From positions 3,072 through 67,071 of the IMG/VR virus record IMGVR_UViG_3300034022_000350: 64,000 nucleotides of DNA, one strand, 5' to 3'. Both the position numbers and the translations under genes were made by a program. The first letter of the stretch is position 1, and every line of letters begins with the position of its first letter. The DNA comes from a virus. The notes beneath the pieces were generated by a model that did not search any database, had not been told where the DNA came from, and saw nothing but the letters and a program-made list of their open reading frames with translations. Below, in pieces: positions 1 through 62,479 of the stretch.

Positions 1-426
1 TATTTCACGTAGTAATGATTTTTCTTCTCTTAGATTTGTAATCTCTTCTTTTAGTCTTTGAATATATAATGTAGCATCCATAAGCTCTTCTTGAACATGA
101 TTAAGCCATGCAAAAACATCAGATTTGTCATCACGTAATGTTTTACCGTATTTTTCAAAGCCTACATCAGACCTATCTACAAATTTGTTTACAACGCATT
201 GTACTACTGGGTCTCTAAATTCAATTTCTTGTTTTGTCATATTTATTTCTTTTTTTCTTTCGTTAAACGCTTTAATTAAATCATATTCAAACCAGGTATA
301 CTTATCTTCCCAAACTATCCAATTGTTTGATTCTTTCCTTCTAAGGATTAGAACTTCTTCCGCTTCTCTAAAATAGTAAATATTTTTAATAATTTCATCT
401 TGCGAATATTCAAAATGCCTATTCAT
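1..426 (-). CDS. Partial protein with a MazG-like/nucleotide pyrophosphohydrolase-type domain (runs off window start; alternative start at 240)
   Basis: Hand translation: open frame from ATG 426, with internal Met at 240, giving ...DRSDVGFEKYGKTL...WLNHVQEELMDATLYI. The EExxD helical motif is typical of all-alpha NTP pyrophosphatases. Confidence 0.6.
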   Translation of the reverse strand, partial: MNRHFEYSQDEIIKNIYYFREAEEVLILRRKESNNWIVWEDKYTWFEYDLIKAFNERKKEINMTKQEIEFRDPVVQCVVNKFVDRSDVGFEKYGKTLRDDKSDVFAWLNHVQEELMDATLYIQRLKEEITNLREEKSLLREI

Positions 427-799
427 ATTTTTTTAAGTAATTTAAACTAGGTTCAATTAAATGCTTTGATTGTTCAAATAATTCTAGAGTTGAATTACAT
501 CTGGGGCATAATATACCCCTAACTTTACCATTTGTATGATTATGATCTATATATCTATCTGACCATTTTAAATTAATATTGCATATCTCACAGTTTTCAG
601 TTTCTTTTAATTTTTTAACTTCATCAAAAGTTATTTTATATCTACTGCTGGCTGACTTTATAGATCTGCATTGCTTACAATCATAACGCCTATATTCATA
701 TCCTTCTTTATTTTTGTATTTGTTTTTAACACTGAATGTTTCAAACTCATATAGAGGCTTTGGTATTTTACAATCTTTACAAATTTTACCTAATTCCAT
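419..799 (-). CDS. Endonuclease VII-like HNH endonuclease
   Basis: CEIC...IDHNHTNGKVRGILCPRCN motif of the T4 gp49/EndoVII family, plus N-terminal CxxC pairs. Confidence 0.85.
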   Translation of the reverse strand: MELGKICKDCKIPKPLYEFETFSVKNKYKNKEGYEYRRYDCKQCRSIKSASSRYKITFDEVKKLKETENCEICNINLKWSDRYIDHNHTNGKVRGILCPRCNSTLELFEQSKHLIEPSLNYLKKYE

Positions 800-800
800 A

Positions 801-1616
801 TTATAGAGTATCTTTCATAAAAGATCCATTAATCATTTTGCCCTTACGGCTTTCAATAACTTGATAAGCTGATACAACGCAATCTTCAACTTTTAAACCT
901 TCTAATGCAGCTAGATTAGTCAATACAACCATCATGTCACCAATAGCATCAATAAGTTCTGGCTTGTCATTTTTAAGAATAGCTCTTGCTAATTCTCCAG
1001 ACTCTTCCATTAGTTTTACATATTGTGTTTTTGCATCTCCATTTCTATATATGCCTCTTTCATCAGCCCATTGTCTAATCAAATCATATACACATGGAGG
1101 TTCTGTTATAGTATCTGGTAATTTTAAATATTGATCTTTGTATTCCATTGCGGGTGTTTTTTTACCCATTGATTTAGCAAACTCATTCATTGCTTTGTTA
1201 TACACATATGACCTAGATGGATTATACATTGAGGTATTAGCATTTTTGACAATCCAATCTATTAAGTCTTCTGTCAATGCATATTTACCAAACTCCGTTT
1301 CTATTTTGAGTTGTTTGTTATCCATTAGATTACCCTTTAACTTGTTAACCGGGCATGGAAAAGTTGTTGTTTGTTCTGTTACATTTAATACCATTTGATC
1401 TCTGTTTTTAATTGTTGTTTTATATAATTCAATATCTTGCTCATAGCCGTATAATGATTGCAATTCTAATTCTCGTTGTGATATATAATCTATATCATTA
1501 CTCTCTTCTAAAATCTCATATTCAGTTGGATGATACCCTTGTCGTGTCTTTAATCTATAATTAATATTACGCGTAACTCCAATCTTTTTACCAAAAACGT
1601 GATAGATAAAATACAT
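801..1616 (-). CDS. MazG-like nucleotide pyrophosphohydrolase with N-terminal extension (possibly GIY-YIG-like)
   Basis: C-terminal KLMEESGELARA...DAIGDMMVVL MazG motif; N-terminal YFIYH...KIGVT. Confidence 0.75.
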   Translation of the reverse strand: MYFIYHVFGKKIGVTRNINYRLKTRQGYHPTEYEILEESNDIDYISQRELELQSLYGYEQDIELYKTTIKNRDQMVLNVTEQTTTFPCPVNKLKGNLMDNKQLKIETEFGKYALTEDLIDWIVKNANTSMYNPSRSYVYNKAMNEFAKSMGKKTPAMEYKDQYLKLPDTITEPPCVYDLIRQWADERGIYRNGDAKTQYVKLMEESGELARAILKNDKPELIDAIGDMMVVLTNLAALEGLKVEDCVVSAYQVIESRKGKMINGSFMKDTL

Positions 1617-1624
1617 AAGCTAGG

Positions 1625-2395
1625 TTAAATGGCCACTTTTGCTGTAATTACTGGGCCGTGTTTATAATTTATTAAGGTTAATGCTCCGTTTTCATAAATA
1701 TACTCTGGAAGATCAAAATTGTCTTGATCCAAATATTCACGTATTGCAGATAGTTGATTGTCGTAAATGTGAGCGTCAATAATTTGCAAGTCAAGTAGGT
1801 TAGGTTTATAACCCGTCCTATCTGCTACATAAATAAGTATCTTACTAAATAATGCAACATCATAAGGTATACCTAAAAACAAATCACCAGATCTTTGTAC
1901 AACAAACATATTAAGTTTATCTCCTTCAACAAAGAATTGGAAATACAAATAACAAGGAGGCAATCGCATTTGATTTAACTGAGCGGGATTCCACAGGCTT
2001 ATAATGTGTCTACGACTGTCTGGATCATCAATTAAACTATTTATAAGCATTTGCATTTGATCTATATTTTGATCATTAAAATTACGCATTTGATGCCCAT
2101 ACACGGGGCCAAGATCTCCATTCTCATCTGCCCAAGCATCCCATATCTTTACACCAGCATCTCTAAATCTTTGTATATTAGTTTCACCATTAATAAACCA
2201 TTTGAATTCTGTATCAAAAGTTTTTTGAAACATCTTTCTACCGGTTATAACAGGAAAATACTTTGAAACATCAATCTTTAAAGAAGCGTTAAATATTGAA
2301 CTACTACCAACTCCAGTGCGATCGTTTCTATGAACGCCCTGTGATAAACATTCCCATAGTATATTTCTGTACTGTGATTCATAACATTCTTCCAT
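1625..2395 (-). CDS. thyA: Thymidylate synthase family protein (possible dCMP methylase/hydroxymethylase)
   Basis: DRTGVG, IWDAWA, LGPVYG, SRRHI, LPPC and QRSGDLFLGIPYD motifs. Confidence 0.9.
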   Translation of the reverse strand: MEECYESQYRNILWECLSQGVHRNDRTGVGSSSIFNASLKIDVSKYFPVITGRKMFQKTFDTEFKWFINGETNIQRFRDAGVKIWDAWADENGDLGPVYGHQMRNFNDQNIDQMQMLINSLIDDPDSRRHIISLWNPAQLNQMRLPPCYLYFQFFVEGDKLNMFVVQRSGDLFLGIPYDVALFSKILIYVADRTGYKPNLLDLQIIDAHIYDNQLSAIREYLDQDNFDLPEYIYENGALTLINYKHGPVITAKVAI

Positions 2396-6424: not shown

Positions 6425-7189
6425 TTATAGGTAATCAAGGACTTGGGAGGAATCTACATTATCAATCAGCTTTTTAATTGCTTGCTTTTTTATCTCTGAA
6501 ATTCTAACATAAGCACTTGCGCCTTCAATGCCTAAATAGTCTGCAATTTGATTTGCAGAATGTTTATCACAGTCTAAACCATAACTCAAACGCAGTACAT
6601 CATATTCATTACCATCTAAATGTTTTTTAAGCAAACTAGTTAGATATAAATTCATTAAGACTACATTGTATGGTTCTGATTGATCTGCTATCTGATAAAA
6701 CGTGTTATCATCATCTTCATCATTCATTTGTTCATCAATACTTAGGAATATAGAATTAAAAAACATAGCTACTAATACGTGATCATTGTTGTTGTCTTTG
6801 CGTATTTCATTTAGCTTATGCTCTGGAATTTTAATAGAGCCTCTATTGATGTCTATGGATCTACGTATGGAGCCTTTGATTCTTTTTGATAGGAATGACT
6901 TCAATGTTGATTCTTTATCATTAGAAGTGTTGATTGTGTCCCACTCTAGTTTATCAATTGCTTGTATTAATCCAATAGATCCTGATTGTATTAAGTCTGT
7001 AATATCTAGTACACCACATGCTTGCGTTGTAGTTGAAAACTTTTTAGATATATTTTCTACAAGTGGTAAGAACTTTGCAATTAACTGATCTCGTGGGTAT
7101 GATTGAAAATCATTATTTAAACTATTCTTATTAGTTTCTTTAATGTCTTCTTTATACCTAATGTAATTTTGTACGTTATAACTTTTCAT
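6425..7189 (-). CDS. Sigma70-family RNA polymerase sigma factor
   Basis: Region 2 (RDQLIAKFLPLV, DLIQSGSIGLIQAIDK), IKIPEHK, and region 4 (VLRLSYGLD...IADYLG...RISEIKKQAIKKL). Confidence 0.9.
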   Translation of the reverse strand: MKSYNVQNYIRYKEDIKETNKNSLNNDFQSYPRDQLIAKFLPLVENISKKFSTTTQACGVLDITDLIQSGSIGLIQAIDKLEWDTINTSNDKESTLKSFLSKRIKGSIRRSIDINRGSIKIPEHKLNEIRKDNNNDHVLVAMFFNSIFLSIDEQMNDEDDDNTFYQIADQSEPYNVVLMNLYLTSLLKKHLDGNEYDVLRLSYGLDCDKHSANQIADYLGIEGASAYVRISEIKKQAIKKLIDNVDSSQVLDYL

Positions 7190-29015: not shown

Positions 29016-30560
29016 ATGTCAGACGCTATAGTCAAAAATTTAAGTTTCGGTAAAGAAGCAAGTGATAAGGTATTTGCAGGTATAGAAAAGCTATCAAAAG
29101 CTGTAAGTTCTACATTAGGAGCCAGTGGTAAATGCGTTTTACTAGAAGATTCTACAGGTAGACCTGTTATTACTAAAGACGGTGTAACTGTTGCTGACTC
29201 AATTATATTGTTAGATCCTGTAGAGAATATGGGAGCTACGTTATTAAAAGAAGCAGCACGTAAAACAGTAAGAGAAGCAGGCGATGGCACAACAACAGCA
29301 ACGGTGTTAGCTCACGCTATATTAAAGAACGCTTATAAGATAGAAAATCCAGATACTAGAAAGATTAAAGAAGGTATTAACAAAGCCGTTGATAATGTCG
29401 TTAAGTATCTTGAAGATATGGCAGTTTTAGTTGATGATGATATGTTAGATCATATCGCCACTATATCTACAAATAATGATCCTGAACTAGGCAAGTTAGT
29501 TGGGGATGCTTTCAGAGCAGTTGGTAATACAGGTATTGTAATGATGGAAACATCTTCAGATGCCGAATGTAGCTTGCAGCTAGTTGAAGGCGTGCAATGT
29601 TCAATGGGTTTAACAAATTCACATTTTGTAACTAACCATAAGAATAAGACAGCAGAACTAGATAACCCTTTAGTTTTATTAGTTGAGTCACCGATTGAGA
29701 ATGTTCGTCAAATACAAAAGGTATTAGAGTACGTTATAAAGAACAATAGATCTTTATTGATTATTGCTGATATGGAACAGATAGTATTATCTACGTTAGC
29801 AATGAATAAGTCTAAAGGTAATATAAAAATCAATGTTATCAATGCGCCAACCTATGGTATTAATAGAAAAGAGATATTCGATGATATTGCTTTACTAACT
29901 GGTGCAACTTTAATAAACGAAGATCTCGGCGATGATTTAGATTTAATAGATCCATCAATGCTTGGAGTTTGTTTTAAAAGTATAACAAACCACGAAGAAA
30001 CAATACTTCACGTAGGAGAACCCACCGAAGAAGTACTCGATATAATTAATGACATTAAGAAATCTTTGTCAGAAAATAATAATAGCGCCACAGTAATAAA
30101 ACTAGAAAAAAGATTAGCTAGATTAACAGCAAAAATATCTGTAGTTAAAGTAGGCGCTAATTCAGAAATAGAGTTAAAAGAAAAAGCAGACAGAATCGAA
30201 GATGCTATTTGCGCTACTAAAGCCGCTATTAAAGAAGGTATTGTACCAGGTGGCGGAATAGCTTTATTAAATGCTTCATATAATATAGATACTTTTTCTA
30301 TCGGTGAAGAAATATTGTTAGATTCTATTAGATCACCATTCAATACAATATTAAGCAATGCTGGAATAGAGGTTATGTCAGAAAAGATTGTAACCGGTGT
30401 TGGGTATGGCTTAAATGTTATAACTGGAGAAACAGTAGATATGATTAAAGCAGGTATCATTGATCCACTACTTGTTACAAAGAGTGCTTTGAAAAATGCT
30501 GCTTCTGTTGCTACAACGATACTTTCAACTGACTGTGTAATCAATAACTTGAGGGCATAA
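29016..30560 (+). CDS. groEL: Chaperonin GroEL
   Basis: TKDGVTVA, AGDGTTTATVLA, GIVPGGG, GIIDP. Confidence 0.97.
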   Translation: MSDAIVKNLSFGKEASDKVFAGIEKLSKAVSSTLGASGKCVLLEDSTGRPVITKDGVTVADSIILLDPVENMGATLLKEAARKTVREAGDGTTTATVLAHAILKNAYKIENPDTRKIKEGINKAVDNVVKYLEDMAVLVDDDMLDHIATISTNNDPELGKLVGDAFRAVGNTGIVMMETSSDAECSLQLVEGVQCSMGLTNSHFVTNHKNKTAELDNPLVLLVESPIENVRQIQKVLEYVIKNNRSLLIIADMEQIVLSTLAMNKSKGNIKINVINAPTYGINRKEIFDDIALLTGATLINEDLGDDLDLIDPSMLGVCFKSITNHEETILHVGEPTEEVLDIINDIKKSLSENNNSATVIKLEKRLARLTAKISVVKVGANSEIELKEKADRIEDAICATKAAIKEGIVPGGGIALLNASYNIDTFSIGEEILLDSIRSPFNTILSNAGIEVMSEKIVTGVGYGLNVITGETVDMIKAGIIDPLLVTKSALKNAASVATTILSTDCVINNLRA

Positions 30561-44292: not shown

Positions 44293-47200
44293 ATGGCTGA
44301 AGTAAAAAATAGTTTCCTACAATCAAAAATGAATAAAGATCTAGATGATAGGCTTATTCCTAATGGGCAGTATAGAGAAGCTCTAAATATATCTGTTGGT
44401 AAATCTGAGAATAATAATGTAGGTGTATTACAAAATATATTAGGTAACGCGAAACTAAATGTGTTAAGTACCGTAGATGCTAGTTTAACTTGTATAGGTG
44501 CTTTTATGGATAATCAGAATAATAGGATATATCAATTCTTGACTAACTATATTGACTTAACTCCTGAAAACATAACTTTATGCGATAACATCCCCCCTCC
44601 AACTGGCGGTTGGACAATGAAGATAACTGTATATGATTTTAATACTAACCCACAATATAAAACGCTAGTATCCGGTACGTTCTTAAACTTCTCAACTACA
44701 AACTTAATACTAGGCGTAAATTTAATAGAAGGATTGTTATTTTGGACAGATAATAGAAATCAACCAAGAAAAATAAACGTAGAGAGCGCAATAAATAATC
44801 CATTATATTATACTACAGAAACTCAAATATCTGTTGCTAAATATGCTCCTATAGATCCTATTTCTATGTTTAGAAAAGCAACTGTAACAATAACAGATAT
44901 AACGGACGGTGTTTATTCATTTGAAGACATGGTTGGGGTTTTAGAGGTAGGTATGACATTAATATCCGGAACTATGCCCGAAAGTGGTTATTCTACGGTC
45001 CTTACCGTAGGAGAAGGCACATTTGAGCTTTATATTTTTAATTCTGGTATAATTGTTGGAGACACAATTACATTCCTAACATCGACAATGACTAACAAGT
45101 CTAACGACCCGGGGTGGGCCGGAGACCCATCTTTTCTAGAAGATAAATATGTAAGATTTAGTTATAGATTTAAGTTTGATGATAACGAATATTCTTTAAT
45201 AGCTCCATTTACACAGATAGCTTATATCCCAAAACAAAAAGGTTATTTTTTGAGTGGAGATGAATCGTCTGCTTATAAGAGTACAGTAATCAGTTGGATG
45301 GAGAATAATATTAACAATATAGAATTATTAGTACCATTGCCTGATACCGGTAACAATATTAGAGATACTTATAAAATAACGCAATTAGAGATATTATATA
45401 AAGAGTCTGATGCTTTATCTATAAAAGTGTTAGAAACAATAGAATATATTGACATAAGACAATCATCTACAAATACCAATATATACAACTATGTTTATCA
45501 GTCTCAAAAACCATTTAAGACACTTCCAGACGATCAAGTAACTAGGGTATATGATAATGTACCTGTTAGAGCTTTAAGTCAAGAAGTAGTTGGGAATAGG
45601 GTAGTATATGGTAATTTTTATAATACATATTCACCTCCAGTCGGTTTAAACTATAACACTACTATATTGCCAAAATCTAGTGTTTTTAATAATTTTATAG
45701 AATATCCAAATCATACAGTAAAGCAAAATAGGAATTATCAAACAGGATTTATATTAGCCGATAAATTTGGTAGACAATCGTCCGTTATATTGTCTACAGC
45801 TCCAGCCCAATCCACTGAAATTGGCGGTACTTTATTTGGAGGGTCAACTATATATGCGCCTTATGAGGACCAAAACTCTGCTAACATTTTGTCAGTTAAA
45901 AACTGGTTTGGAAACGCGATAGTTACTATTGTTAATAGCACAATAGACTCCGTCAGAGACATTCAGGCAGGAACTCCGGGATTATATGCCGAACCGGTTT
46001 CTAATATTGGTTTTATAGTTTTACCAGGGTCTACTACTATAACCGATAATTCTTATCAATTTACAATTGATTCAACATCTAATCAAACCGTGCCAGCAAT
46101 AGGGGATAGCATGCGCGGTGCTTATACTGACTACGTGACTGTTATACCAAAGAAAAACACAGATCCAACCCCTTCACCGCCAACTTATTTTATTAGAACA
46201 AATGGTAGGGTAAACGATTTGTATTTATCAAATCTTGATAATCCTGTAGATAAAAAGTTTTCATATAATATAAACGAAATAGGTTGGTATTCTTATAGAG
46301 TTGTAGTAAAACAACAACAACAAGAATATTATAACGTGTATTTACCCGGCATGTTGGATGGTTACCCTAGTGATCAAACATATGGTTCTCAGGTTGTATA
46401 TGATTCTTTAGGTGTAGCTTCTACGCAAAATGGTATAAATATAACTGATTTTCCTATAGGAGAAATTGGTAAGACTAGTCATATAGTATTAATTAATGAT
46501 AACATAAATAAAGTACCAAGAGACTTAGTTGAAGTAGGTCCTGATCAAAAATTATATAGAAGTAGTGTTTCTTTATATGGTAAAGTAGAAAATTCTATTA
46601 CAATAATAGACGTTATAGCAGACGAAGATTATTTAGTAACGAACCCTTTAGCTACCTCTATAATATATAAATTATCAGAGAATGGAAACGGTTCTGGTGT
46701 TATAAAAACAGTTGTTCCAGGTAATGGAATTCAGTCAAATGAAGCAAATGACCCTATTGACAATCCAAATAGATGGTATGCAAATACAGCAGTCGTTTCC
46801 AATGAATTGTATTCTTTCTTAGAGTATAATTTAGCCCTTGAAAGTAGTGGCGATAGCATTGTTGAGTTAAAGCCGTCTACTAACATAGTAATCATTGATG
46901 ATGAAGTGGTTTATGAAATAGATGGTATTGTTTATTACGCTACAATTACAAATGTTATTGGCAGTGATATAGAAATTACTCCAACCCTAGCTGTTGATAT
47001 GCCAGCTAATACAGAACTAAAAATAATTAGACCAACACATGGTATTATAAGATTCAGTCCGCCTAATAACGTTGTTAATGATGGCAGTATTAAATATTTA
47101 AACTACACGATTGCTAAAGGAGAGAATATACAATATTTTCCTACAAGAAAAGCAGATGTTGTTACAGCTATAGCAACGGCTGCGGATTTTAACTTTTTAG

Positions 47201-50200
47201 AAAACGATGTAAACAACATAAAAGGCACCGCCGGTTTAAATTTTTACCAACTTCAAACAAAGCCTAGCATAGGCAGAATTTCAGTTGTAAATCCTATTGG
47301 AGTAGTCAGCGACAAGATGATGCCATATTTAAGTGTATATGAAACAACCCCAGTATCGTCAGCATTACAATTATTCTGGGAAACTACTTCTACTGGCCTT
47401 ATATCTGATCTCAATTATGACGTTTTAGTTGGGTATGAAGGACCTATTGGATTTAGCAATATAAATTTTTTATTTTATGAAAACCAAAATAGATTAGGTG
47501 TTGGCACAGAAGAAGGTGAACCTAATTCTAAATGGATAACTAATACTTTTGTGATTTTAAATAACACAGGAGTACCTTTATCTTTTATAGGTTCCCCCGT
47601 GTTAGTTTCAGCTTTTGATAACTCATCCCCAGCAATTGATTTGACTTCTAAATTTGGAGTTAGTTTAAATCAGGATCTTGATCCAAGTTCTATAAGACTT
47701 TTTATTAACGATGCCTTCGCATTTGATCACGACGCTCCGGTACTTGGGGACTATACTTTTACTATAAAGGTTGAATGGGAACCAAATAATTTTGCTACAT
47801 TTGAGTTAACAGGTAGATTAAGAAATATTGAACCTTATTTTACACAAACAGCAGCTGAATATAGTAAAAAAATATTTGTTGAATTCCCTACAGTTACTAG
47901 TACAAGTCAACCAATAGTAACGTTGACTGCTAGTAATGGATCTTTCGCTGCTTCACCGCAAGATCAACAGGGACTATATTGGACTTTAATAGAAGGCAAT
48001 GAAAATAACTACTTCACGTTAAATTCAACCAATGGATTATTATCACTTATAAGCCAAACTATACCATTAGGGGTTTATACTTTGAAAGTTAGAGTTCAAG
48101 ACGCATATGCTGGGGCCCCATTGGTAGGAGAAGAGGATTATTATGGTACGTTGTTCTCCGATATTGAATTTACAGTTACTGTAATAACCCCTCCTGTTCC
48201 TGAAAGCTTAATATATGAAACAGACGAGTTTGTATGGAATCATGATACCGCTTGTAGTGATTCTAATGTAATTGGACAGGGTTACGCAGCTTTTTATATT
48301 GGTGCATCAAATTTAGAGTTAGGTGCCTTTGGTGTAAATAATGGAATAAATCCGTTTTTACCTGATATAACAGATACATTTCCATCACCTCCAACTACAT
48401 CTGCGTTTCAATCATATATTAACGTTGGAGAAGCTAACGGGTTAATATTTGGATCATCTAATCCGCCTACAGGTTTAACAAGGGGTTCTCTAGAATTTAT
48501 CATGTCAAATGTTGGTAGAAATTTATATCCTAATACTACTGCTATTGATACTTTGCAAAAAATAACAGCATATTGTAATACTCAAAGACAAGGTAAATTA
48601 GAATACATATTATATTATAGACCATTATCATCACCTATAAACGGGAGTTGGTCTGTGTTTAAAAACAATAATAGTATGCCGCTTGATACTCCTACAAATA
48701 CACCGGCTATTTGGGACGATTTTAGCAGTGAAATGTCGGTTTATCATTATACTGCATTACGTGTTGCGTCAACGGCAACGATACCTGCTTCGCCATTAAA
48801 TCTAACTATAATTGATTCCGAACCATTACCGAAAGTAAATGATTATATTGTTTTTGGATTATCACTTAGTGGTAACGGTTATTATAAAATAACAGAAGTT
48901 TATCCTGGAGATGGTATATATACGGTAATATTAGAAACTGGCGGGCCATCAGTTTCTATTCCTGCAAATTCAATTGTCAATGTAGCTAGAATACCTGAAA
49001 ATAGTCCAGGTGATGTGTTGAAACAAACATCTTTAGTAGCTACAATACCTGGCGAGTATTGCCTTGTATTAAGATATAAATACAAAAGGGAGGTTTCAGG
49101 TACTGTATTCATGCGATATGCAGATTCCCCGAGTATTAATATGATTGTGACATTAGACATTTCTACGACTTCTAAAGAGGTATTTGTAGGAGATACTATA
49201 TCATGGCGAGAAGCATCTTTTCCTTTTACAACATATATTAGAACCATAACGCAAGTCAGCGGAGTAGGAAGTAATACAATACGTATTAGTGGTTCAAATG
49301 TATTCATTAATGATAATCAAATATTTATAATAAATAGATCGTATCCTGAGAATTTATATTGTTCTACAGTAGATTTCTTTGGCAAAGTACAAACTAAAGA
49401 TGTTAATGACTACGAAAATAGTTATAGATATGACGTGGCTATAAATACACCATCTTCTTATCCATATAGTAGAGAACTTGGAGCACCTGCGCCCGCTAGG
49501 CTTGGTTTTGATTACTTATCAAACGTATATGTCAATGCTCAGTCTGTTGCATCTAATGAAATAACTATTATTGATTTCCCGTTGGCTACTTATTTAAACG
49601 AGATGGTTGGAAGTATCGCTCCTGGTGTATATATATGGACTTCTGGATATACAAATTGGGGTGGAGATCCATATTTCAATGATAACACTAGGGTTGTTAG
49701 CATAAATGAAACAACAAAAGAACTAATATTAAGTAGTAACACAAAAATACCTATACCTGAAAACACTGTAATTGTTTTATTTACCAGGAATACGGATGTA
49801 AAAGGAAGTTTGTGGGCTACTACAAACAATGGTAACTCAATAAAACAGTTTTATATTGATGAAGATACCCTAATACCTTGGGAACCTGCATTCGGCGGTA
49901 GATATTGTACTTATAGGAATTCAGATAAAAACTATAGTAGTATAATAACAGATGGACCTATTACGTGGAGTGCTCCACCTATAAATGGTTCGTCTTATAT
50001 CACATTAATGCCACCTATAACTGAAAAACCTTACTTCACAGCTATATTTGAGGATAACGGTAGTTTTGTAGCGAATAGCAACGCTCCGTTCGTTAATTAT
50101 TATACGGCTTGGGATTATAATCAAAGAGGCCAGTTATTCGGTTCAGCTACAGCTGTTAACGGTCAATATCTAATTGACACTAATAATACGTTCTTACAAG

Positions 50201-50388
50201 CATGGGTAAAACCATCTGATTGGGTATACAACATAACCAGAGGCACTTCGTCTACAGTCTTATCTGTGATTGATATTAATACAATTTTATTAGCTGATCA
50301 AATAATAAGTGAGATTGGCGATAACTATATTATAAGTCCGTATTTAGACCTTGATGCTTTTAATTTATTGCAAGTTAAATCAATTTAA
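44293..50388 (+). CDS. Large tail protein (muzzle/stabilisation-like N-terminus with long beta-rich, cadherin-like extensions)
   Basis: KMNKDLDDRL, LFWTDNRNQPRKIN, RFSYRFKFDDNEYS, NRVVYGN. Confidence 0.7.
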   Translation: MAEVKNSFLQSKMNKDLDDRLIPNGQYREALNISVGKSENNNVGVLQNILGNAKLNVLSTVDASLTCIGAFMDNQNNRIYQFLTNYIDLTPENITLCDNIPPPTGGWTMKITVYDFNTNPQYKTLVSGTFLNFSTTNLILGVNLIEGLLFWTDNRNQPRKINVESAINNPLYYTTETQISVAKYAPIDPISMFRKATVTITDITDGVYSFEDMVGVLEVGMTLISGTMPESGYSTVLTVGEGTFELYIFNSGIIVGDTITFLTSTMTNKSNDPGWAGDPSFLEDKYVRFSYRFKFDDNEYSLIAPFTQIAYIPKQKGYFLSGDESSAYKSTVISWMENNINNIELLVPLPDTGNNIRDTYKITQLEILYKESDALSIKVLETIEYIDIRQSSTNTNIYNYVYQSQKPFKTLPDDQVTRVYDNVPVRALSQEVVGNRVVYGNFYNTYSPPVGLNYNTTILPKSSVFNNFIEYPNHTVKQNRNYQTGFILADKFGRQSSVILSTAPAQSTEIGGTLFGGSTIYAPYEDQNSANILSVKNWFGNAIVTIVNSTIDSVRDIQAGTPGLYAEPVSNIGFIVLPGSTTITDNSYQFTIDSTSNQTVPAIGDSMRGAYTDYVTVIPKKNTDPTPSPPTYFIRTNGRVNDLYLSNLDNPVDKKFSYNINEIGWYSYRVVVKQQQQEYYNVYLPGMLDGYPSDQTYGSQVVYDSLGVASTQNGINITDFPIGEIGKTSHIVLINDNINKVPRDLVEVGPDQKLYRSSVSLYGKVENSITIIDVIADEDYLVTNPLATSIIYKLSENGNGSGVIKTVVPGNGIQSNEANDPIDNPNRWYANTAVVSNELYSFLEYNLALESSGDSIVELKPSTNIVIIDDEVVYEIDGIVYYATITNVIGSDIEITPTLAVDMPANTELKIIRPTHGIIRFSPPNNVVNDGSIKYLNYTIAKGENIQYFPTRKADVVTAIATAADFNFLENDVNNIKGTAGLNFYQLQTKPSIGRISVVNPIGVVSDKMMPYLSVYETTPVSSALQLFWETTSTGLISDLNYDVLVGYEGPIGFSNINFLFYENQNRLGVGTEEGEPNSKWITNTFVILNNTGVPLSFIGSPVLVSAFDNSSPAIDLTSKFGVSLNQDLDPSSIRLFINDAFAFDHDAPVLGDYTFTIKVEWEPNNFATFELTGRLRNIEPYFTQTAAEYSKKIFVEFPTVTSTSQPIVTLTASNGSFAASPQDQQGLYWTLIEGNENNYFTLNSTNGLLSLISQTIPLGVYTLKVRVQDAYAGAPLVGEEDYYGTLFSDIEFTVTVITPPVPESLIYETDEFVWNHDTACSDSNVIGQGYAAFYIGASNLELGAFGVNNGINPFLPDITDTFPSPPTTSAFQSYINVGEANGLIFGSSNPPTGLTRGSLEFIMSNVGRNLYPNTTAIDTLQKITAYCNTQRQGKLEYILYYRPLSSPINGSWSVFKNNNSMPLDTPTNTPAIWDDFSSEMSVYHYTALRVASTATIPASPLNLTIIDSEPLPKVNDYIVFGLSLSGNGYYKITEVYPGDGIYTVILETGGPSVSIPANSIVNVARIPENSPGDVLKQTSLVATIPGEYCLVLRYKYKREVSGTVFMRYADSPSINMIVTLDISTTSKEVFVGDTISWREASFPFTTYIRTITQVSGVGSNTIRISGSNVFINDNQIFIINRSYPENLYCSTVDFFGKVQTKDVNDYENSYRYDVAINTPSSYPYSRELGAPAPARLGFDYLSNVYVNAQSVASNEITIIDFPLATYLNEMVGSIAPGVYIWTSGYTNWGGDPYFNDNTRVVSINETTKELILSSNTKIPIPENTVIVLFTRNTDVKGSLWATTNNGNSIKQFYIDEDTLIPWEPAFGGRYCTYRNSDKNYSSIITDGPITWSAPPINGSSYITLMPPITEKPYFTAIFEDNGSFVANSNAPFVNYYTAWDYNQRGQLFGSATAVNGQYLIDTNNTFLQAWVKPSDWVYNITRGTSSTVLSVIDINTILLADQIISEIGDNYIISPYLDLDAFNLLQVKSI

Positions 50389-54787: not shown

Positions 54788-57700
54788 ATGCCTATATACA
54801 ATTATAACGGAGTTGATTTTACAGAAGAGGAAGTATTATCTAAAGCTGAAGAAAAAGGACTTGATATTGATACATATATTAATAAATTCGGTATTAAAAG
54901 AATAGAGGATGAACCTACTATTGAACCGCCGGGAAAGCCGAAGCCTGCTGTAAAAAAGGGTGCCGTAACAGCAGGGAAACCAAAAAGTACGGCATCCAAA
55001 TCGGTAAAACCTTCATCGGTATCTCAAGATAATATTTTTGGTGAGGATAAAATAAAAAGTTCTTTTCTAGGTAAGTTACAAGAATCAGTTGATCCAGAAA
55101 CAAAGACCGTTAAACCTGCAAGTGTAAAACCAGTAAAGCCAACTACTAAGCTTATTTCTGAATATCAAGCAGAAGAGGCGAAGAAGGAAGAAGGTGGCTT
55201 TATGAATTATATAAAAGAAAGCTTGGATTTTACAGTGTCTAAAGCCGTGCAATCTATTTATAAAGCGCCTGAATACGCATACGATTTTATAGCTTCTAAT
55301 TTTACTGATCCATTAGCTAATACACTAAGAGAGGCCGCTGGGTTTGAACCAGTGTATAGTTCTTCTGATCAGATAATGGAAACGTTTGGTATAAAAAATA
55401 TACCAGCCGATATATTGCAAGAAAGAATAAAAGAATCTAATAAAGTATTTAAAGATTATAGTGATAAAAATGGAGTTGACCCATTAACAGCTATTGAGAA
55501 TGGTAATTACTTAGGCGCTGCAAAACTAGTCGCCGGAGGTACGGTTCAATCTTTTGCTCCAATGGCTGCGGCTATGCTAAGCGGTGGTAGTTCTGCAGTA
55601 TTAGCAGGTATCGGGGCTTCTGCTGCAGTTTCAAAATCAGAAGAATTAAAAGCTGAAAATCCAGAAATGGACACTCGAACTAGAGTGAATAATGCTGCTG
55701 TATCCGGATTGCTTGAACGTTATGTTGGTCAATTTTTTACAGGAATTTCTGGTTCTGTTGCTAAAAGAATAATAGCTGATAAAGGGGCCGAAGCGGGTTC
55801 TAAAATATTAGCCAACGGGTGGAAAAGCATGGTAGAAAATGCTATTGAAAAAAATCCGTTAATAGGAGCTGTTGGAGAGGTAGTTGAAGAAGGTGGTGTT
55901 GAATTGGCTAATCAATTAAACGATATGAATTCTGGTATTAGAAAAGAACTGGATTATCGAGCGATTGCAAATGCGGGTATTATAGCTACTGGTATGGCGG
56001 GTACAAATACCGTGCCTGTATATGCGGCTAAAGGCTATATGAAAGCTGCTGAGTATAATAAAGTTAAGTCAGTAAATAAAGAAATAAATAATCTTACAAC
56101 GCAATTATCAAATCCTTTCGTTAGTGATTCTGATAAAAAGATAATCTCATCACGAGTTACTAGACTTGTGGATGAGAATAAAGCTATTGTAGGCGCTAAC
56201 TTAGAAAAGATTAATGCGTTACCAGATAGTATAAAAGAAGAAATCTCTGTATTAAATACTGGATTAGATAATATAAAAAGCAAATATTTAGACTTGCAAG
56301 ATAATCCTGAACTTCCAATAGATGTACAGGAATCAATGACTAAAGAACTAGCAATACAAGCTAAAGATTTACAGAAAAGAAAATCTAGTATAATTGAAGG
56401 CAATTATATTTACGAGGACTTTAAAAAGTTGCCAGAAGCAGAACAAACTAGAATTAAAGATAAAGCAACGGAAATGTTGATTGCTGATTCTGATTTGATT
56501 GGGGAGGGTAAAACTAGCTTTAATGAAGAAGAAATAAATAGAAGCGCTATAGATATTTACAATGCAGAATTACGTACCAAAGTAATTACAACGGACATTG
56601 AAAGAACTCAGCAAGCAATAAAAAATATAGGCCTTGGAGAAGATCTTGATATGCCTGAATTAAACACGGCAAACGATGTTATAAAATACCTAACAGAAAA
56701 TACAACTCTTGATACGGATACAATTGATAATATTGCCGATGACTATGGCTCATTTATACCATTAGCGAATGGTAAAGAAGCATTGTTAATAAACAAAGAA
56801 GCTGCTGAAATGGATCAAGTTGTTACAACTGGACAACATGAATTCTTGCATAAACTTATATATAAAGCTGTTTTAAACGATCCTAAGCTGCAAAAACAGA
56901 TGGGAACGCAGTTATATAATCATATTGAAAATTATGTTGGTACGGAAGCTTTAAATGACACTAAATTTAAAGGTAGATACGATACATATAAAGCTGACTT
57001 TGAAGAAACAAAAAGCGGATATGAAGCTACAATAGCTAAAGCTAAAGCGTTTTTAGATAAAGAGCAAATAACACAAGAGCAATATGATAAGACAGTTGCT
57101 GATGCTGATAGTAGAATTGTTAAAGCAGAAGGTAAGTATTTAGAAGAGGTATTACCTTTGTTATCGGAATCTTTATCAAGCGGAGATATAAAGTACAACG
57201 AAACATTCTTTACAAAAATAGGCGATATAATACGTAGAGTATTTCAAAAATACGGATTAAGTAAAGTAAGATTTGATACTGGCAAAGATGTATTTAATTT
57301 TGTTAGAGACTATAACAAAAGTTTTGAGAAGGGACAATTTAACAAAGCTTTTAAAGCACTGGCAAAAGAGGGTTCTTATAAAGGATCCATAGCTAAAGGC
57401 AATAAAGCCGTAAGAGCAATACCTACATCAGCAGATATAAAATCATCAAAAGTACAAGTTGAAAGTCTAACTAAAGAATTGCAAGACCTTGAAGACGAAT
57501 ACGATGAAGGTTATGGAGATATGGAAGAGGCTGAATATACTTCTAAAAAATCCAACATTGAACGCAAGATAAAAGCAGCGGAGAAGTTAATTGAAAAAGC
57601 TCCGGTTAAAGAAGAGGTTGTTAAAAAAGAAAAGACAAAAGAAGAGCAGGAAGATGCCGAGGAAAATGCACTTAAAAAAATAGTAAGAGAAGAAAAACAA

Positions 57701-60700
57701 TCTATATCTTCTGACAAAGTGCAAAAGATCTACGATGAGAAAGGTAGAAATGGCGCTGACCAAATTATAAAATTGTTTAGACCAATAACAAAACGCATTG
57801 TAGACAAACGTAGAGATGCCCCGGACTTTGATAATTTTAGAGAAATATTAACAGATGAAATTGAGACAGGAGTAGGCGGTATTTTAGATTTAATAACTAA
57901 ATACAAACCTGAATCAGGGGTTCCATTAGCTGCTTATATTAATAAATATCTGCCTGTTAGAGCAATTGCAGCATCTAGAAGAGTATTAGGTAAAGAATTC
58001 AGCAAGGATGCTTCAGAAGAGACTGGCCTAATGGCTACAGAGACTGCAGATCAAAATATGACTGAAAGAGTTGTTGAAAAACCAAAGTATAAGAATGCAT
58101 TGGAATCAAAGGTTTTTGAACCAGAAACTTTAGAATCAATAAATAGCAAGATACTTACTGTTATTAGAACTCTGAAGTCCCGTATTGATGCTCCTATAAC
58201 ATTAAACCGAACTGTAACGCCATTAATAACAGAGATTAGAGATGAGATTGGTAAGCAAGTCGACATTGATGTTAAATCAGCAATGGGTACTAAAAAAGAC
58301 AATCAACTAAGGAACTGGTTATTAAAGAATAAAAAATATGTTCTTGAGAATATGACTACCACCTGGCTTATGGGTAAAGATGGGCAAGGAGGCATGCCAA
58401 TTGCTATTCAAAAAAGAGTAGATGGTAAATGGACAAATTTTCCAGAATGGGTTGGCAAAAAGATTGACAGAGAGTCTATGGGCACAGATAATGCCGGTAG
58501 AACATCAGGTCGTGAATTGGCAAGAAGGTTGCCAAATGTTGCAAACAATATATCGGACACGGATTTTCTTGACCAAATTATTGGTCCTGATGGTAATCCA
58601 ATTAGAGGTAGGAAAGAATCTTTAGCAAAAGTTGTTGCTGAAGAAGCATCTTTTGATATTATATTAGATGATCTTGCAAATGAAGGACCTATATTTGACG
58701 CTTTAAAAACAAATCAAGAAAGACAAGGTGTTGAAGTATTTGAAACTCTTGCTGCAGAAATGGCTAGACAAGCTGAACGTGGTAATGTTAAACAATCTAA
58801 GAAGGTTGCTAAAGAAGTATTAACTGTATTAAGTAAAAACGAATGGGATTTAAACAACGAAGACTATAAGAATTTTGTATCTAGTTTGTCTAAAGAAGAT
58901 TCTGACTATGTTACCAATGTACTACAAGAAAAATCAATAAAGCAATTAAGAAAGTACCTAAAGGTAATTGATATAGAAAATAAAGAATTTGATTTTAAGA
59001 ATAAAATAATATCTGCTTTAGAAGATCCTGTTGAAAAGGTACTTAGTAAAATAAACAGATTTAAGTTAATTAGCCAAGTAGCATCGACATCAACATCTAA
59101 GTTAACTGATTTAAAGATAGAGTATAAAAAGAATACGTATAACTTTGAATTAAAAGTAGATAAAGATTCTAGACTTAAAGGTGTAGTTATAAATAATGTA
59201 ACTACAAATCCAACAATAAACAAAAACACAGGTATAAATGATGTAATAGCTGACGCATTAAAGAATGATACTAATGTTAAAGCGTATACAGATTATTTAT
59301 TAGCTAACGGGGGCGAAATAGTTGCTAATGGCAGTATAAAAGTACCAATAAGCGTATTTAAAGATCCTAAAGCAAGAGATTTACAAGACAAAGCTAAAGT
59401 TAGAATACGAGCAAATGCAGATTTAGTAAAAAATATAAACGGAGGTGTTAATGATGCTATTACATTTGGCGGAATTGGAACATTCTCTTATGGTGACACT
59501 AAGTTTGAAGGTGTATTACCTGATTTAGAAGGAGACGTAGACTTTGAGGTAACCACTCAAAGGGGCTCTATGGACAAAGATAAAAATGTTAGTGTGTATT
59601 TTATTGGCTTTCCAAAAATGGCTCAAAATTGGGATCAGAAATCGCCTATAGATATACATGATAAGCCAAAGAAACTATTAACAATAATTAGAAAAGCTTC
59701 TTTATTAAAACGTAATAGAATATCTGCAAAAGCAGTTAAAACGGTATTGAATGCTGCCAGACCATCTTACGCTGCAAAGCCTAAAAAAATAAGTGTAATA
59801 GACATTGACGAAAGACTTGCCAAAATAAAAAAGAAAATTTCATATAAAGATAAAGAAGGCAAGGTTAAAAAATTAACTGTACCGGAATTCCTTAAACAAC
59901 AAATGCAACTTGAACTTGACGGTATTATATTTGATTATACAGACGTAAAGGATGAGGTTGGGAAAAACAAAGACATACTAGATGGTTTTGACAATACAGA
60001 TCCAGACAGCAGCTTTGGTGTAACAACAGAGTCAACGGATTCGAGCGGTGCTATACAAGTATTATTACAAAACGTAGGAGTTAACATACCTGCAAACAAT
60101 ATAAACACATTAGACGATAGCACAGATCAGGCGAAAGCTGATTGGGTTACAGGTAAGTTCTCGGAAGGGTTCAATGATTTTAATATTGCCGGCGATAAGT
60201 TTAAAAACTCAATAGGTGTAAAAACAATATTAGAAGACTTTGATGTAAAAGGAGAAAAGCAACAGAAAAAGCTTGCATTCTTTAATTCATTAGACGGACA
60301 ATTTAATAAGATAATATCACAGAATACAGGGATAGGCCCTATGATTACTTACTCAGATATTGTTGCTAAAAGAAGAGGTGCGCGTAAGGGTATATTTGAC
60401 GTTTATGTTCCACCTTCTGCTGCTGACTTTGAGTTGCTTTTGTATAAGTTTCTAGGTAAAGGTGCAAAAGGTGAAGAACAGTATAAGTTTTTTAGAGATG
60501 CTTTGCTTGATCCATATTCAAACGGTACGGATTTATTAGATGCTGCTAGACAATCGATCAAAAACGATTACAAGAAATTACTAAAGGAATATCCATTTGT
60601 TAAAGGACAATTAGAAAAGCTAATACCAAATAGTGAATTCACATATGACCAAGCAATACGTGTTGCAATATGGGATGCTAATGGCGTAGAGATTCCTGGA

Positions 60701-62479
60701 TTAACTAAGAAAGACCAAAGAATGTTAAGCAACTTTGTTAATAATGATCCAGATTTAACCCAGTTTAAGAATGGATTACTTATAACCGGTAAGCAGGGTA
60801 AAGATTGGATTAAGCCGGAAGCTAATTGGGACGCTAGTACAATTATTTCTGATCTTCACGGTCTTACAGAAGGTAATGGTAGAAAGAAGTTCTTGGAAGA
60901 ATTCATTGCTAATGCAGAGCAAATCTTTGGTAAGTGGGATCAAGGTAGATTGGTTGGCCCTAACATGAATAAGGTAGAAGCAATATATGGTACCGCTACT
61001 AGAGAAGCTATTGAGGACGTTGTATATAGAATGACTACTGGGAAAAATAGAAGTCAAGGAAAAGACAAAGGCACTAATGCTTGGAGTAATTGGGTAAATA
61101 ATTCCACTGGTACAATTATGTTTCTTAACACTAGATCGGCATCATTGCAGTTAATAGGCGCAGTTAACTTTTTAAACTTAAGAGATAATAATCCTATTGC
61201 GGCAGGGAAAGCTTTTCTTAATCCAAAACAATATTGGGAAGATTTTGCAACTATATGGAATTCAGATAAAATGAAGGAAAGAAGGGGCGGCCTTAAAGAA
61301 GACGTAGCTTCATCTGAAATAGCCAATGCAGCCGCTGGCAGCAAAAACAAAGCCTCTGCGGTTATATCCTATCTTCTAAAGATTGGATATACGCCAACAC
61401 AATTAGCGGATAGTTTTGCTATTGCTTCTGGAGGCGCACCATTTTATAGAAATAGAATTAATTCATATTTAAAAGAAGGATTAACACAGGAGGAAGCTGA
61501 AGATAAAGCCTGGACAGATTTTACAAAAGTATCAGACGAGACACAGCAGTCGGGTGATCCAAGAGATATATCACAACAGCAAGCAAGCCCAGCGGGTAGA
61601 TTATTATTGACATTTCAGAATACAGCAATGCAGCAGTCACGCATTGTTAAGAAATCATTTTTGGATCTTAAGAACGGTAGAGGAGATGCTAAAACGCATG
61701 TTGCAAAAATAACTTACTATTTAGCTATTCAAAATATAATGTTTTCTGCATTACAACAAGGATTATTCGCCGTAATTTTTAATGATGATGATGATGAAGA
61801 AAAAGACAAAAAAATTATAGATGTTGCAGAAGGCGTATTAGATTCTATACTAAGAGGAACTGGATATTACGGGGCTATAGTGGCTACTCTCAAAAATATG
61901 GCCGTAAAATATTTAAACGAAAAAGATAAAAATTACAAAGCTGATTATGCTAAAGTTGTTTTAGAAGGGGTTAATATATCTCCTCCTATAGGGTCGAAAG
62001 TACGCAAAGTTTATTCTGCATTACAGCAAACAAAGTTTGAAAAAGATCTTATAGAGAAGCGTGGATGGGATGTTATGCAAGACGGGAGAATCCATTTAGG
62101 CCCAATGTATTCTGTTTCTGGTAAGCTTATTGAAGCCGGAATAGGTGCGCCGACTGACCGTTTAGTCAATAAAATAGAAAATGTTTCACAAGCGATGAAT
62201 TCGCACCATAGTGCTCTGCAAAGATTGGCCCTTTTGTTTGGCTGGAATTCAATTAGCCTTGGCATAGAAGAAACTCCAGGTGATCTTAAAATAAGGGAAG
62301 AAGCTAAAGCATTTAGAAAAGAAGCCGGTAAAATAAAAGGTAAAGAAACAAGACAGAGAACAAAGGACTCCATTAAAGCTTTGCCTCTTAATGAAAGAAT
62401 AGCTTTAAAAAGAGCAAAACGTGAAAAGCGTAGAGAAGAAAAAAGAAAAGAAAGAAGTAAAAAAAGAAAGATGGGATAA
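54788..62479 (+). CDS. Giant polyvalent internal virion protein (zincin HExxH, sigma-2-like, possible PD-(D/E)xK, degenerate HAD-like)
   Basis: 2563 aa; HEFLH at 56837; sigma-like segment at about 57750-57990; last gene of the ejection cluster. Confidence 0.75.
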   Translation: MPIYNYNGVDFTEEEVLSKAEEKGLDIDTYINKFGIKRIEDEPTIEPPGKPKPAVKKGAVTAGKPKSTASKSVKPSSVSQDNIFGEDKIKSSFLGKLQESVDPETKTVKPASVKPVKPTTKLISEYQAEEAKKEEGGFMNYIKESLDFTVSKAVQSIYKAPEYAYDFIASNFTDPLANTLREAAGFEPVYSSSDQIMETFGIKNIPADILQERIKESNKVFKDYSDKNGVDPLTAIENGNYLGAAKLVAGGTVQSFAPMAAAMLSGGSSAVLAGIGASAAVSKSEELKAENPEMDTRTRVNNAAVSGLLERYVGQFFTGISGSVAKRIIADKGAEAGSKILANGWKSMVENAIEKNPLIGAVGEVVEEGGVELANQLNDMNSGIRKELDYRAIANAGIIATGMAGTNTVPVYAAKGYMKAAEYNKVKSVNKEINNLTTQLSNPFVSDSDKKIISSRVTRLVDENKAIVGANLEKINALPDSIKEEISVLNTGLDNIKSKYLDLQDNPELPIDVQESMTKELAIQAKDLQKRKSSIIEGNYIYEDFKKLPEAEQTRIKDKATEMLIADSDLIGEGKTSFNEEEINRSAIDIYNAELRTKVITTDIERTQQAIKNIGLGEDLDMPELNTANDVIKYLTENTTLDTDTIDNIADDYGSFIPLANGKEALLINKEAAEMDQVVTTGQHEFLHKLIYKAVLNDPKLQKQMGTQLYNHIENYVGTEALNDTKFKGRYDTYKADFEETKSGYEATIAKAKAFLDKEQITQEQYDKTVADADSRIVKAEGKYLEEVLPLLSESLSSGDIKYNETFFTKIGDIIRRVFQKYGLSKVRFDTGKDVFNFVRDYNKSFEKGQFNKAFKALAKEGSYKGSIAKGNKAVRAIPTSADIKSSKVQVESLTKELQDLEDEYDEGYGDMEEAEYTSKKSNIERKIKAAEKLIEKAPVKEEVVKKEKTKEEQEDAEENALKKIVREEKQSISSDKVQKIYDEKGRNGADQIIKLFRPITKRIVDKRRDAPDFDNFREILTDEIETGVGGILDLITKYKPESGVPLAAYINKYLPVRAIAASRRVLGKEFSKDASEETGLMATETADQNMTERVVEKPKYKNALESKVFEPETLESINSKILTVIRTLKSRIDAPITLNRTVTPLITEIRDEIGKQVDIDVKSAMGTKKDNQLRNWLLKNKKYVLENMTTTWLMGKDGQGGMPIAIQKRVDGKWTNFPEWVGKKIDRESMGTDNAGRTSGRELARRLPNVANNISDTDFLDQIIGPDGNPIRGRKESLAKVVAEEASFDIILDDLANEGPIFDALKTNQERQGVEVFETLAAEMARQAERGNVKQSKKVAKEVLTVLSKNEWDLNNEDYKNFVSSLSKEDSDYVTNVLQEKSIKQLRKYLKVIDIENKEFDFKNKIISALEDPVEKVLSKINRFKLISQVASTSTSKLTDLKIEYKKNTYNFELKVDKDSRLKGVVINNVTTNPTINKNTGINDVIADALKNDTNVKAYTDYLLANGGEIVANGSIKVPISVFKDPKARDLQDKAKVRIRANADLVKNINGGVNDAITFGGIGTFSYGDTKFEGVLPDLEGDVDFEVTTQRGSMDKDKNVSVYFIGFPKMAQNWDQKSPIDIHDKPKKLLTIIRKASLLKRNRISAKAVKTVLNAARPSYAAKPKKISVIDIDERLAKIKKKISYKDKEGKVKKLTVPEFLKQQMQLELDGIIFDYTDVKDEVGKNKDILDGFDNTDPDSSFGVTTESTDSSGAIQVLLQNVGVNIPANNINTLDDSTDQAKADWVTGKFSEGFNDFNIAGDKFKNSIGVKTILEDFDVKGEKQQKKLAFFNSLDGQFNKIISQNTGIGPMITYSDIVAKRRGARKGIFDVYVPPSAADFELLLYKFLGKGAKGEEQYKFFRDALLDPYSNGTDLLDAARQSIKNDYKKLLKEYPFVKGQLEKLIPNSEFTYDQAIRVAIWDANGVEIPGLTKKDQRMLSNFVNNDPDLTQFKNGLLITGKQGKDWIKPEANWDASTIISDLHGLTEGNGRKKFLEEFIANAEQIFGKWDQGRLVGPNMNKVEAIYGTATREAIEDVVYRMTTGKNRSQGKDKGTNAWSNWVNNSTGTIMFLNTRSASLQLIGAVNFLNLRDNNPIAAGKAFLNPKQYWEDFATIWNSDKMKERRGGLKEDVASSEIANAAAGSKNKASAVISYLLKIGYTPTQLADSFAIASGGAPFYRNRINSYLKEGLTQEEAEDKAWTDFTKVSDETQQSGDPRDISQQQASPAGRLLLTFQNTAMQQSRIVKKSFLDLKNGRGDAKTHVAKITYYLAIQNIMFSALQQGLFAVIFNDDDDEEKDKKIIDVAEGVLDSILRGTGYYGAIVATLKNMAVKYLNEKDKNYKADYAKVVLEGVNISPPIGSKVRKVYSALQQTKFEKDLIEKRGWDVMQDGRIHLGPMYSVSGKLIEAGIGAPTDRLVNKIENVSQAMNSHHSALQRLALLFGWNSISLGIEETPGDLKIREEAKAFRKEAGKIKGKETRQRTKDSIKALPLNERIALKRAKREKRREEKRKERSKKRKMG

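Follow-up and report, generated by a model that had tools for sequence, protein, structure and literature searches.

An Asp177/Tyr147 ThyA homologue encoded beside a MazG-domain protein in an uncultured phage: a candidate pathway for 5-methylcytosine in viral DNA

We analysed a ThyA homologue and the MazG-domain gene that adjoins it at the beginning of a 64,000-nucleotide stretch of viral DNA (the window), which corresponds to bases 3072-67071 of the 67,071-base IMG/VR record IMGVR_UViG_3300034022_000350, rated complete by CheckV. The genes from window position 2395 to position 1 follow one another closely on the minus strand, neighbours being separated or overlapping by 1-9 nucleotides (nt), and this string is headed by the following two genes.

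Window 1625-2395, minus strand: ThyA-family enzyme of 256 amino acids (aa), predicted to be a C5-methylase of deoxycytidine monophosphate (dCMP); identified with PF00303, phrog_160 and residue alignments.
Window 801-1616, minus strand: MazG-domain protein of 271 aa, proposed to convert deoxycytidine triphosphate (dCTP) to dCMP and pyrophosphate; identified with PF03819, PF01503, PHROGs and PDB 1vmg.

The results of our profile searches showed that the 256-aa protein is a member of the ThyA family. It matched PF00303 over residues 8-255 of 256 (E 1.1e-73; 248.1 bits against a cut-off of 24.3), phrog_160 with an E value of 1.4e-82 and thymidylate synthases of the PDB with E values down to 2.8e-59. 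Its identity to Escherichia coli ThyA is 37%, and residues are numbered here according to that enzyme, with PDB 2tsc and the K-12 thyA as alignment references. The catalytic Cys146 and the phosphate-binding residues R21, R126', R127' and R166 are all present, and E58, W80, W83, Y94, L143, Q165, S167, D169, G173, H207, Y209 and the C-terminal VAI (tail AKVAI) are kept as well; apart from positions 177 and 147, no residue checked for a role in catalysis or in folate contact has changed. Comparison with the E. coli enzyme showed an aspartate opposite N177 (GIPYDVA against GLPFNIA) and a tyrosine opposite H147 (LPPCYLYFQF against LAPCHAFFQF), together with an arginine in place of A142 and a glycine in place of C168. 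These four substitutions (A142R, H147Y, C168G and N177D) are the only differences from E. coli among the 12 residues within 6 Å of the substrate C5 that are listed in PMC13326640.

Both of the substitutions to which a preliminary description of this DNA had drawn attention, the aspartate at the canonical Asn177 and the PPCY in place of PPCH, were thus found again in the alignment, and they recurred without exception in the relatives of the protein. Y147 and D177 were present together in 120/120 of the best database relatives (78-100% identity) and in 38/38 related IMG/VR loci (57-83% identity), and the pattern is evidently under selection. A census of 150 representatives of the 50%-identity clusters nearest to the query gave an asparagine at position 177 in 108 cases, an aspartate in 37 and another residue in 4, the remaining sequence being a fragment. 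Of the D177 representatives, 25/37 lack His147 and have a tyrosine (16), a proline (8) or a valine (1) in its place, versus 2/108 of those with N177. The D177 forms fell in several clades of a FastTree tree (147/154 sequences, no support values shown), in which D177 enzymes with a histidine, a proline or a tyrosine at position 147 intermingled; this tree is not strong enough to number the independent switches from N177 to D.

Published work on enzymes of this family provides rules with which these residues can be read. The N177D substitution turns ThyA into a dCMP enzyme that forms 5-methyl-dCMP (5mdCMP), and when thymidylate synthase homologues from viral contigs with and without cytosine modification were compared, positions 177 and 147 were the two that best told the sets apart (PMC8670742). 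An acidic residue at position 143 accompanies hydroxymethylation, as in T4 and MilA, and D169N accompanies flavin-dependent 5-hydroxylation (PMC13326640). Five of seven metaviromic D177 homologues, as well as the enzyme of phage Xp12, gave 5-methyldeoxycytidine (5mdC) in E. coli when the T4 deoxynucleoside monophosphate (dNMP) kinase was co-expressed (bioRxiv 10.1101/2024.12.05.627091).

In the ThyA homologue of the window, Asn177, which contacts the O4/N3 face of the uracil and characterizes the canonical ThyA that methylates deoxyuridine monophosphate (dUMP), is replaced by Asp177, the residue of 5-methyl-dCMP synthases of the Xp12 type. The published product code for a dCMP methylase, a non-acidic residue at position 143 combined with Asp169, appears here as L143 and D169. 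The presence of Leu143 and of the C-terminal tail AKVAI separates the protein from dCMP hydroxymethylases of the T4 gp42 type, and the retention of Asp169 separates it from 5-hydroxy-dCMP synthases of the RB69 gp48 type, which are marked by D169N. Because D177, L143 and D169 occur together under this code, we read the ThyA homologue as a natural dCMP methylase. In ThyA, water is kept away from the exocyclic methylene intermediate by W80, L143 and the C-terminal carboxylate, and mutants at these sites leak a hydroxymethyl product; the retention of W80, L143 and the C-terminus fits a methyl product. The preliminary description had proposed either 5-methyl- or 5-hydroxymethyl-dCMP, and this choice can be narrowed to the former, since the enzyme retains its C-terminal tail as well as L143, D169 and W80; 5-hydroxymethyl is not favoured. 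By these residues the enzyme very probably takes dCMP as its substrate and probably yields 5-methyl-dCMP, the assignment of the substrate being firmer than that of the product.

We then characterized the gene that follows. Its product carries a MazG domain of the all-alpha nucleoside triphosphate (NTP) pyrophosphohydrolase type in its C-terminal ~105 aa (about window 801-1130), with scores of 30.2 bits against PF03819 (cut-off 22) and 29.2 bits against PF01503 (cut-off 21.3), and it also matched the MazG-like families phrog_1992 and phrog_715 and PDB 1vmg (E 8e-5). With both Pfam scores above their cut-offs and the two genes in one tightly packed minus-strand string, the MazG-domain gene that had been reported in the same operon as the ThyA homologue was confirmed. 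Residues E42, E43 and E46 (EESGEL) and D61 and D65 (DAIGD) of the domain were invariant in 16/16 aligned homologues, and we take them to be the metal ligands. The N-terminal ~165 aa (window 1122-1616, minus strand) had no assignable family, with weak matches to T5orf172 and MUG113 (E about 0.1), and this N-terminal domain was present in 32/38 related loci. Short open reading frames (ORFs) of ~100-120 codons from stop to stop were present in L022, L025, L026 and L043, and ORFs of ~200 codons in L031 and L033.

Comparison of 80 viral loci carrying ThyA relatives showed that the two genes are closely associated. Among these loci, 38 encode the L143/Y147/D169/D177 combination, 41 a canonical enzyme (N177 in L052, L061, L075 and L084, for example) and 1 an H147/D177 enzyme. 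A MazG-domain ORF lay directly downstream of the ThyA homologue, with boundaries of -99 to +17 nt, in 37 of the 38 D177/Y147 loci, and no MazG homologue was found at E 1e-3 in the 41 canonical loci; the 38 loci are mutual relatives, so that this 37:0 contrast does not represent 38 independent events. When the hidden Markov model of the MazG domain was run on the canonical loci with E values up to 1, it gave one weak match (E 0.021), located ~5 kb from the ThyA gene in L084. In five loci of 5.3-7.7 kb each (L023, L025, L026, L031 and L033) the ThyA-MazG pair was the only part homologous to the genome studied here, and the two nearest terminase relatives checked had no ThyA-family gene; the behaviour of the pair is therefore that of an accessory cassette.

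In modified contigs, PRA-PH is one of the five domains found most often in the neighbourhood of such genes (bioRxiv 10.1101/2024.12.05.627091), and Table 1 of PMC13326640 gives matches to dCTP pyrophosphatase structures for the dCTPases of DLP3 and RB69. The MazG protein itself had no equivalog match in NCBIfam. On the comparisons made here, the chances that it is a dCTPase are about even.

From these results we infer the following route. The ThyA homologue would take dCMP instead of dUMP and convert it to 5-methyl-dCMP, with methylene-tetrahydrofolate as the donor of both the carbon and the hydride. The MazG protein would, most likely, hydrolyse dCTP to dCMP and pyrophosphate, which would both deplete the normal competitor and supply the methylase with substrate. 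Phosphorylation of 5-methyl-dCMP to the triphosphate would fall to host kinases, and incorporation of 5-methyl-dCTP into phage DNA to the host replicase, which the phage primase-helicase would recruit. The outcome would be DNA partly or fully substituted with 5-methylcytosine (5mC) and resistant to many restriction enzymes. No C5 DNA methyltransferase was detected in the record. The central proposal of the preliminary description, in which a dCMP-type ThyA homologue and deoxynucleotide pyrophosphatases together give C5-modified cytosine, is strengthened by the published residue rules, by the experiments on relatives and by the MazG pairing; as to the pyrophosphatases, one recognisable gene is encoded and not two. 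We give a probability of roughly 60% to the reading as a whole, a natural N177D-type dCMP methylase acting with MazG to place 5-methylcytosine in the phage DNA. That the virion DNA contains a substantial amount of 5mC is, by our estimate, a toss-up.

Comparison with known systems showed which parts of this route have precedents. The enzyme of Xp12 (MT664984, L004:45326-46195) shares Asp177, a residue other than histidine at position 147 and a non-acidic residue at position 143 with the enzyme studied here, and it adjoins a PRA-PH gene of the MazG clan (E 6.6e-15) as ours adjoins a MazG gene; its validated product, 5-methyl-dCMP, is the product predicted here (bioRxiv 10.1101/2024.12.05.627091). 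However, the two enzymes are only 25% identical, that of Xp12 has Pro147, Asn143 and no VAI tail, and the Xp12 cluster includes a deaminase of the dCMP family and a dihydrofolate reductase (DHFR), neither of which was detected in this phage. The Xp12 relative AXL1 reportedly encodes a DNA polymerase I (PMC9206674), whereas no polymerase of family A or B was found here. The engineered mutants E. coli ThyA N177D and Lactobacillus casei thymidylate synthase N229D, which are reported to make 5mdCMP (PMC8670742), combine the same change of specificity with a ThyA scaffold that is canonical in other respects, whereas the enzyme of the window is natural and carries H147Y, A142R and C168G in addition. 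The metaviromic D177 homologues (MetaGPA, eLife 2021; bioRxiv 2024.12.05.627091) are alike in the diagnostic positions 177 and 147 and in having a neighbour of the PRA-PH/MazG type; unlike the present gene, they were chosen for an adjoining deaminase.

The resemblance to T4 lies in Asp177 and in the pairing of a ThyA-family dCMP enzyme (gp42) with an NTP pyrophosphatase of the all-alpha type (gp56, which matches PF08761, dUTPase_2), by which dCTP would be depleted. The T4 gp42 protein differs in having Asp143, Thr147 and no C-terminal tail, at 23% identity, and T4 supplies its own dNMP kinase (gene 1), polymerase and glucosyltransferases. The 5-hydroxy-dCMP synthases RB69 gp48 and DLP3 gp80 are likewise ThyA-family proteins with Asp177, but they have D169N and L143E and use a flavin (PMC13326640), whereas D169 and L143 are kept here.

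Asp177 being common to this protein and to T4 gp42, the ThyA homologue could instead be a dCMP hydroxymethylase that gives rise to DNA with 5-hydroxymethylcytosine, possibly decorated further. The position-143 rule is a correlation only, and a gene with a 2-oxoglutarate (2OG)-Fe(II) oxygenase fold lies in the same minus-strand gene string. This is nevertheless unlikely: position 143 is occupied by a leucine and not by an aspartate or a glutamate, W80 and the VAI terminus that closes the active site are kept whereas gp42 is tailless, and no glycosyl- or carbamoyltransferase was found among the ORFs scanned, which did not include every small ORF.

The enzyme could also be an ordinary or dual-substrate thymidylate synthase, one that tolerates Asp177 and boosts the supply of thymidine monophosphate (dTMP) for a genome of 67% A+T, with MazG in a general house-cleaning role. 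The absence of a second PF00303 gene from the 67,071-base record, which makes this the sole ThyA-family gene, and the A+T-richness of the genome agree with such a function, as do the label of thymidylate synthase given to it by one source and the score of 206.3 bits with the thymidylate synthase model TIGR03284 (cut-off 108.35). The best NCBIfam equivalog, NF002497, was missed, however, at 253.7 bits against a cut-off of 327. The strict conservation of Asp177 and Tyr147 in all of the 120 and 38 relatives, the switch of preference to dCMP reported for N177D and the way in which both positions track cytosine-modified DNA (PMC8670742) make this explanation improbable.

According to another alternative, 5-methyl-dCMP would be an intermediate only, which a host deaminase would carry on to dTMP or thymidine triphosphate (dTTP), shifting the nucleotide pool from C to T and leaving the DNA unmodified. 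Deamination of 5-methyl-dCTP to dTTP has been proposed for phages of the Xp12 type (bioRxiv 10.1101/2024.12.05.627091), and the A+T-rich composition of this phage would suit it. The published deaminases are phage-encoded, however, and belong to phages that also carry 5mC in their DNA; no phage-encoded deaminase was detected here, and there is nothing to prevent the incorporation of 5-methyl-dCTP. We consider this a poor prospect. That the Tyr147 class makes an undescribed product, Tyr147 and Gly168 having altered the C5 chemistry, is very improbable, for although four of the 12 residues near C5 differ and no validated enzyme was confirmed to have Tyr147, every residue tied to the normal methyl-transfer route is kept, and the intermixing of His, Pro and Tyr147 forms of the D177 enzymes in the tree fits a tuning role better.

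Several observations weigh against the synthesis of 5-methylcytosine by the ThyA-MazG pair, and the kinship of the 38 loci is one of them. The assignments of substrate and product rest on residue rules, of which the position-143 rule carries the wording 'thought to' and 'appears to correlate' in the original paper (PMC13326640). The validated Xp12 methylase has an asparagine, not a leucine, at the aligned position 143 and a proline at position 147, and we could not confirm a tyrosine at position 147 in any validated enzyme. Two of the seven D177 homologues assayed gave no 5mdC (bioRxiv 10.1101/2024.12.05.627091), and the published in vivo assays added the T4 dNMP kinase, whereas no dNMP kinase was detected in this genome. 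One of the 38 loci, L024, has an ORF for the N-terminal domain only, with no MazG domain in any frame. Profile comparison of the MazG domain with T4 gp56 and with the PRA-PH protein of Xp12 gave no significant match; the kinship that remains is at the level of the family, through Pfam.

The same applies to the functions that were looked for in the 67,071-base record. No dCMP-type deaminase (PF00383), DHFR (PF00186), thymidylate kinase (PF02223) or DNA polymerase of family A or B was detected, and a Walker-A scan of the record returned only the primase-helicase and a non-conserved look-alike, with no dNMP kinase. Since no kinase or polymerase was detected, host kinases and the host replicase would be needed and dTTP would come from the host, a dependence that sets the phage apart from Xp12 and T4 and is the main reason for allowing either partial or full replacement of cytosine. 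Some C-containing palindromes are also still rare in the genome: over the whole record GATATC was observed 3 times versus 21.3 expected (observed/expected ratio 0.14) and CATG 115 times versus 181 expected (0.64), and GATC (1.05) and CCGG (1.03) were at expectation, with a ratio of 0.72 for CpG. Fully protected DNA need not avoid such palindromes. Restriction-site avoidance and CpG depletion were dropped as a proxy for modification, the signals being mixed.

The other two genes of the string from 2395 to 1 are as follows.

Window 419-799, minus strand: endonuclease VII-like (HNH) gene, 126 aa (PF02945, E 6.8e-14; phrog_2633).
Window 1-426, minus strand: first 142 codons of ORF206, a conserved helical protein of 206 aa without known family (L002:2877-3497; matches to PHROG families of unknown function only).

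The preliminary description had taken the second of these for another pyrophosphatase-like gene, and this identification was not upheld. ORF206 had no match in Pfam (E up to 10), in NCBIfam, in PDB sequence and profile searches or in two Atlas searches, and its comparison with the MazG profile by hhalign gave a probability of 0.6%. The source labels of the 120 listed clusters of ORF206 homologues included 'NTP pyrophosphatase' once and 'regulator of replication initiation timing' four times. The AlphaFold model had a mean confidence score (pLDDT) of 51, too poor for use. A reading of ORF206 as a kinase, suggested by the fit of GFEKYGKT to the Walker-A pattern, was rejected because the lysine is not conserved in homologues.

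The conserved core of ORF206 begins at Met63, which is the start of most homologues, some of them having a similar N-terminal extension. Across 39 sequences this core has 45 invariant positions, which include F70, R71, D72, P73, V74, V75, Q76, K92, Y93, W107, L108, N109, H110, E113, E114, L115, D117 and A118. A homologue of ORF206 was present in 27/38 D177/Y147 loci and in 0/42 other loci.

The endonuclease VII-like gene, which was absent from the preliminary description, separates the MazG gene from ORF206. In the relatives, the ORF206 homologue directly follows the MazG gene, and the sole endonuclease VII homologues (32-34% identity) are located elsewhere; the gene looks like a mobile insertion that lies outside the nucleotide pathway. 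It is probably a second mobile nuclease of the operon. An HNH endonuclease gene (phrog_3322, E 2e-34) sits amid the pieces of a class II-like ribonucleotide reductase gene, found at L002:1089-2087, L002:358-819, L002:3-332 and window 63304-63999, all on the minus strand. The reductase gene straddles the arbitrary ends of the record. Relatives such as L008 and L009 have a single unbroken reductase ORF of ~625 aa with 92-98% identity to the first piece, and the broken gene looks like the result of a homing-endonuclease insertion, as an intron or as a split gene.

The same minus-strand string ends, beyond the reductase gene, in ORF187 (window 62744-63307, minus strand; 187 aa), which has a 2OG-Fe(II) oxygenase fold (pLDDT 88) with invariant H80, D82 and H165. 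Foldseek matched it to a putative oxygenase and to proline hydroxylases with an E value of 1e-6, and it resembles common cyanophage oxygenases of unknown role. A TET/JBP-like reading was rejected, as the named entries among the matches listed were generic 2OG oxygenases (cyanophage proteins included) and none of them was TET, JBP or AlkB; PDB sequence matches to a Plasmodium aminopeptidase look spurious. A bolder proposal, in which the ThyA-MazG pair is a self-sufficient two-gene mobile cassette that lets a phage devoid of its own DNA polymerase, nucleotide kinase and deaminase replace cytosine by C5-modified cytosine with the help of host kinases and replicase only, is in our opinion rather doubtful. 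So is its extension, in which the Tyr147 class would make a product other than 5-methyl-dCMP, perhaps processed further by the 2OG-Fe(II) oxygenase.

The plus strand of the genome carries the large terminase, portal and virion protein genes, and the minus strand a replication and recombination set with the primase-helicase, an Erf-like annealing protein, an exonuclease and a sigma-like factor. The last of these is a 254-aa protein (window 6425-7189, minus strand) that matched the PHROG family named RNA polymerase sigma factor with an E value of 1.3e-20, which hints at phage-directed control of transcription. A GroEL-like chaperonin gene of 514 aa (window 29016-30560, plus strand; phrog_5725, E 1.2e-131) lies among the structural genes, and the plus strand also has two giant ORFs, at window 44293-50388 (2031 aa) and 54788-62479 (2563 aa).

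The G+C content of the genome is 33%. Megablast found no near-identical phage record, and the best protein identity within the phage collection was 42%. The terminase matched 87 phage records, 86 of which are phages of Flavobacterium, Cellulophaga, Tenacibaculum or Maribacter, with an identity of 44% to the best cultured match and 64% to an uncultured spring virus. In sequencing runs the stretch was present only in assembled contigs, which came from lake water and other freshwater metagenomes, with sampled-word shares of 0.89 and 0.69 in two studies and of at most 0.23 elsewhere. On account of the terminase matches and these contigs, it may reasonably be guessed, though not concluded, that the DNA belongs to a freshwater phage that infects Flavobacteriia.

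A system of this kind has already been described in other phages, and as the general principle is published the gain made here is incremental. What is added is the Tyr147 subclass, its near-obligate two-gene cassette with MazG, and a host phage in which no polymerase, kinase or deaminase was detected. The annotation of such genes is affected, as the sources label them plainly as thymidylate synthase and one NCBIfam equivalog model, TIGR03284, passes them. Given the strict pairing, the neighbouring MazG protein is a candidate for a small dCTPase by which 5-methyl-dCTP would be left intact. If our reading is correct, uncultured phages of a group widespread in fresh water and in the sea, which by the similarity of their terminase probably infect Flavobacteriia, would carry 5-methylcytosine made before replication by a very small set of genes. 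This would bear on methylation-aware sequencing of viromes, and on the escape of these phages from restriction and their vulnerability to methyl-dependent nucleases.

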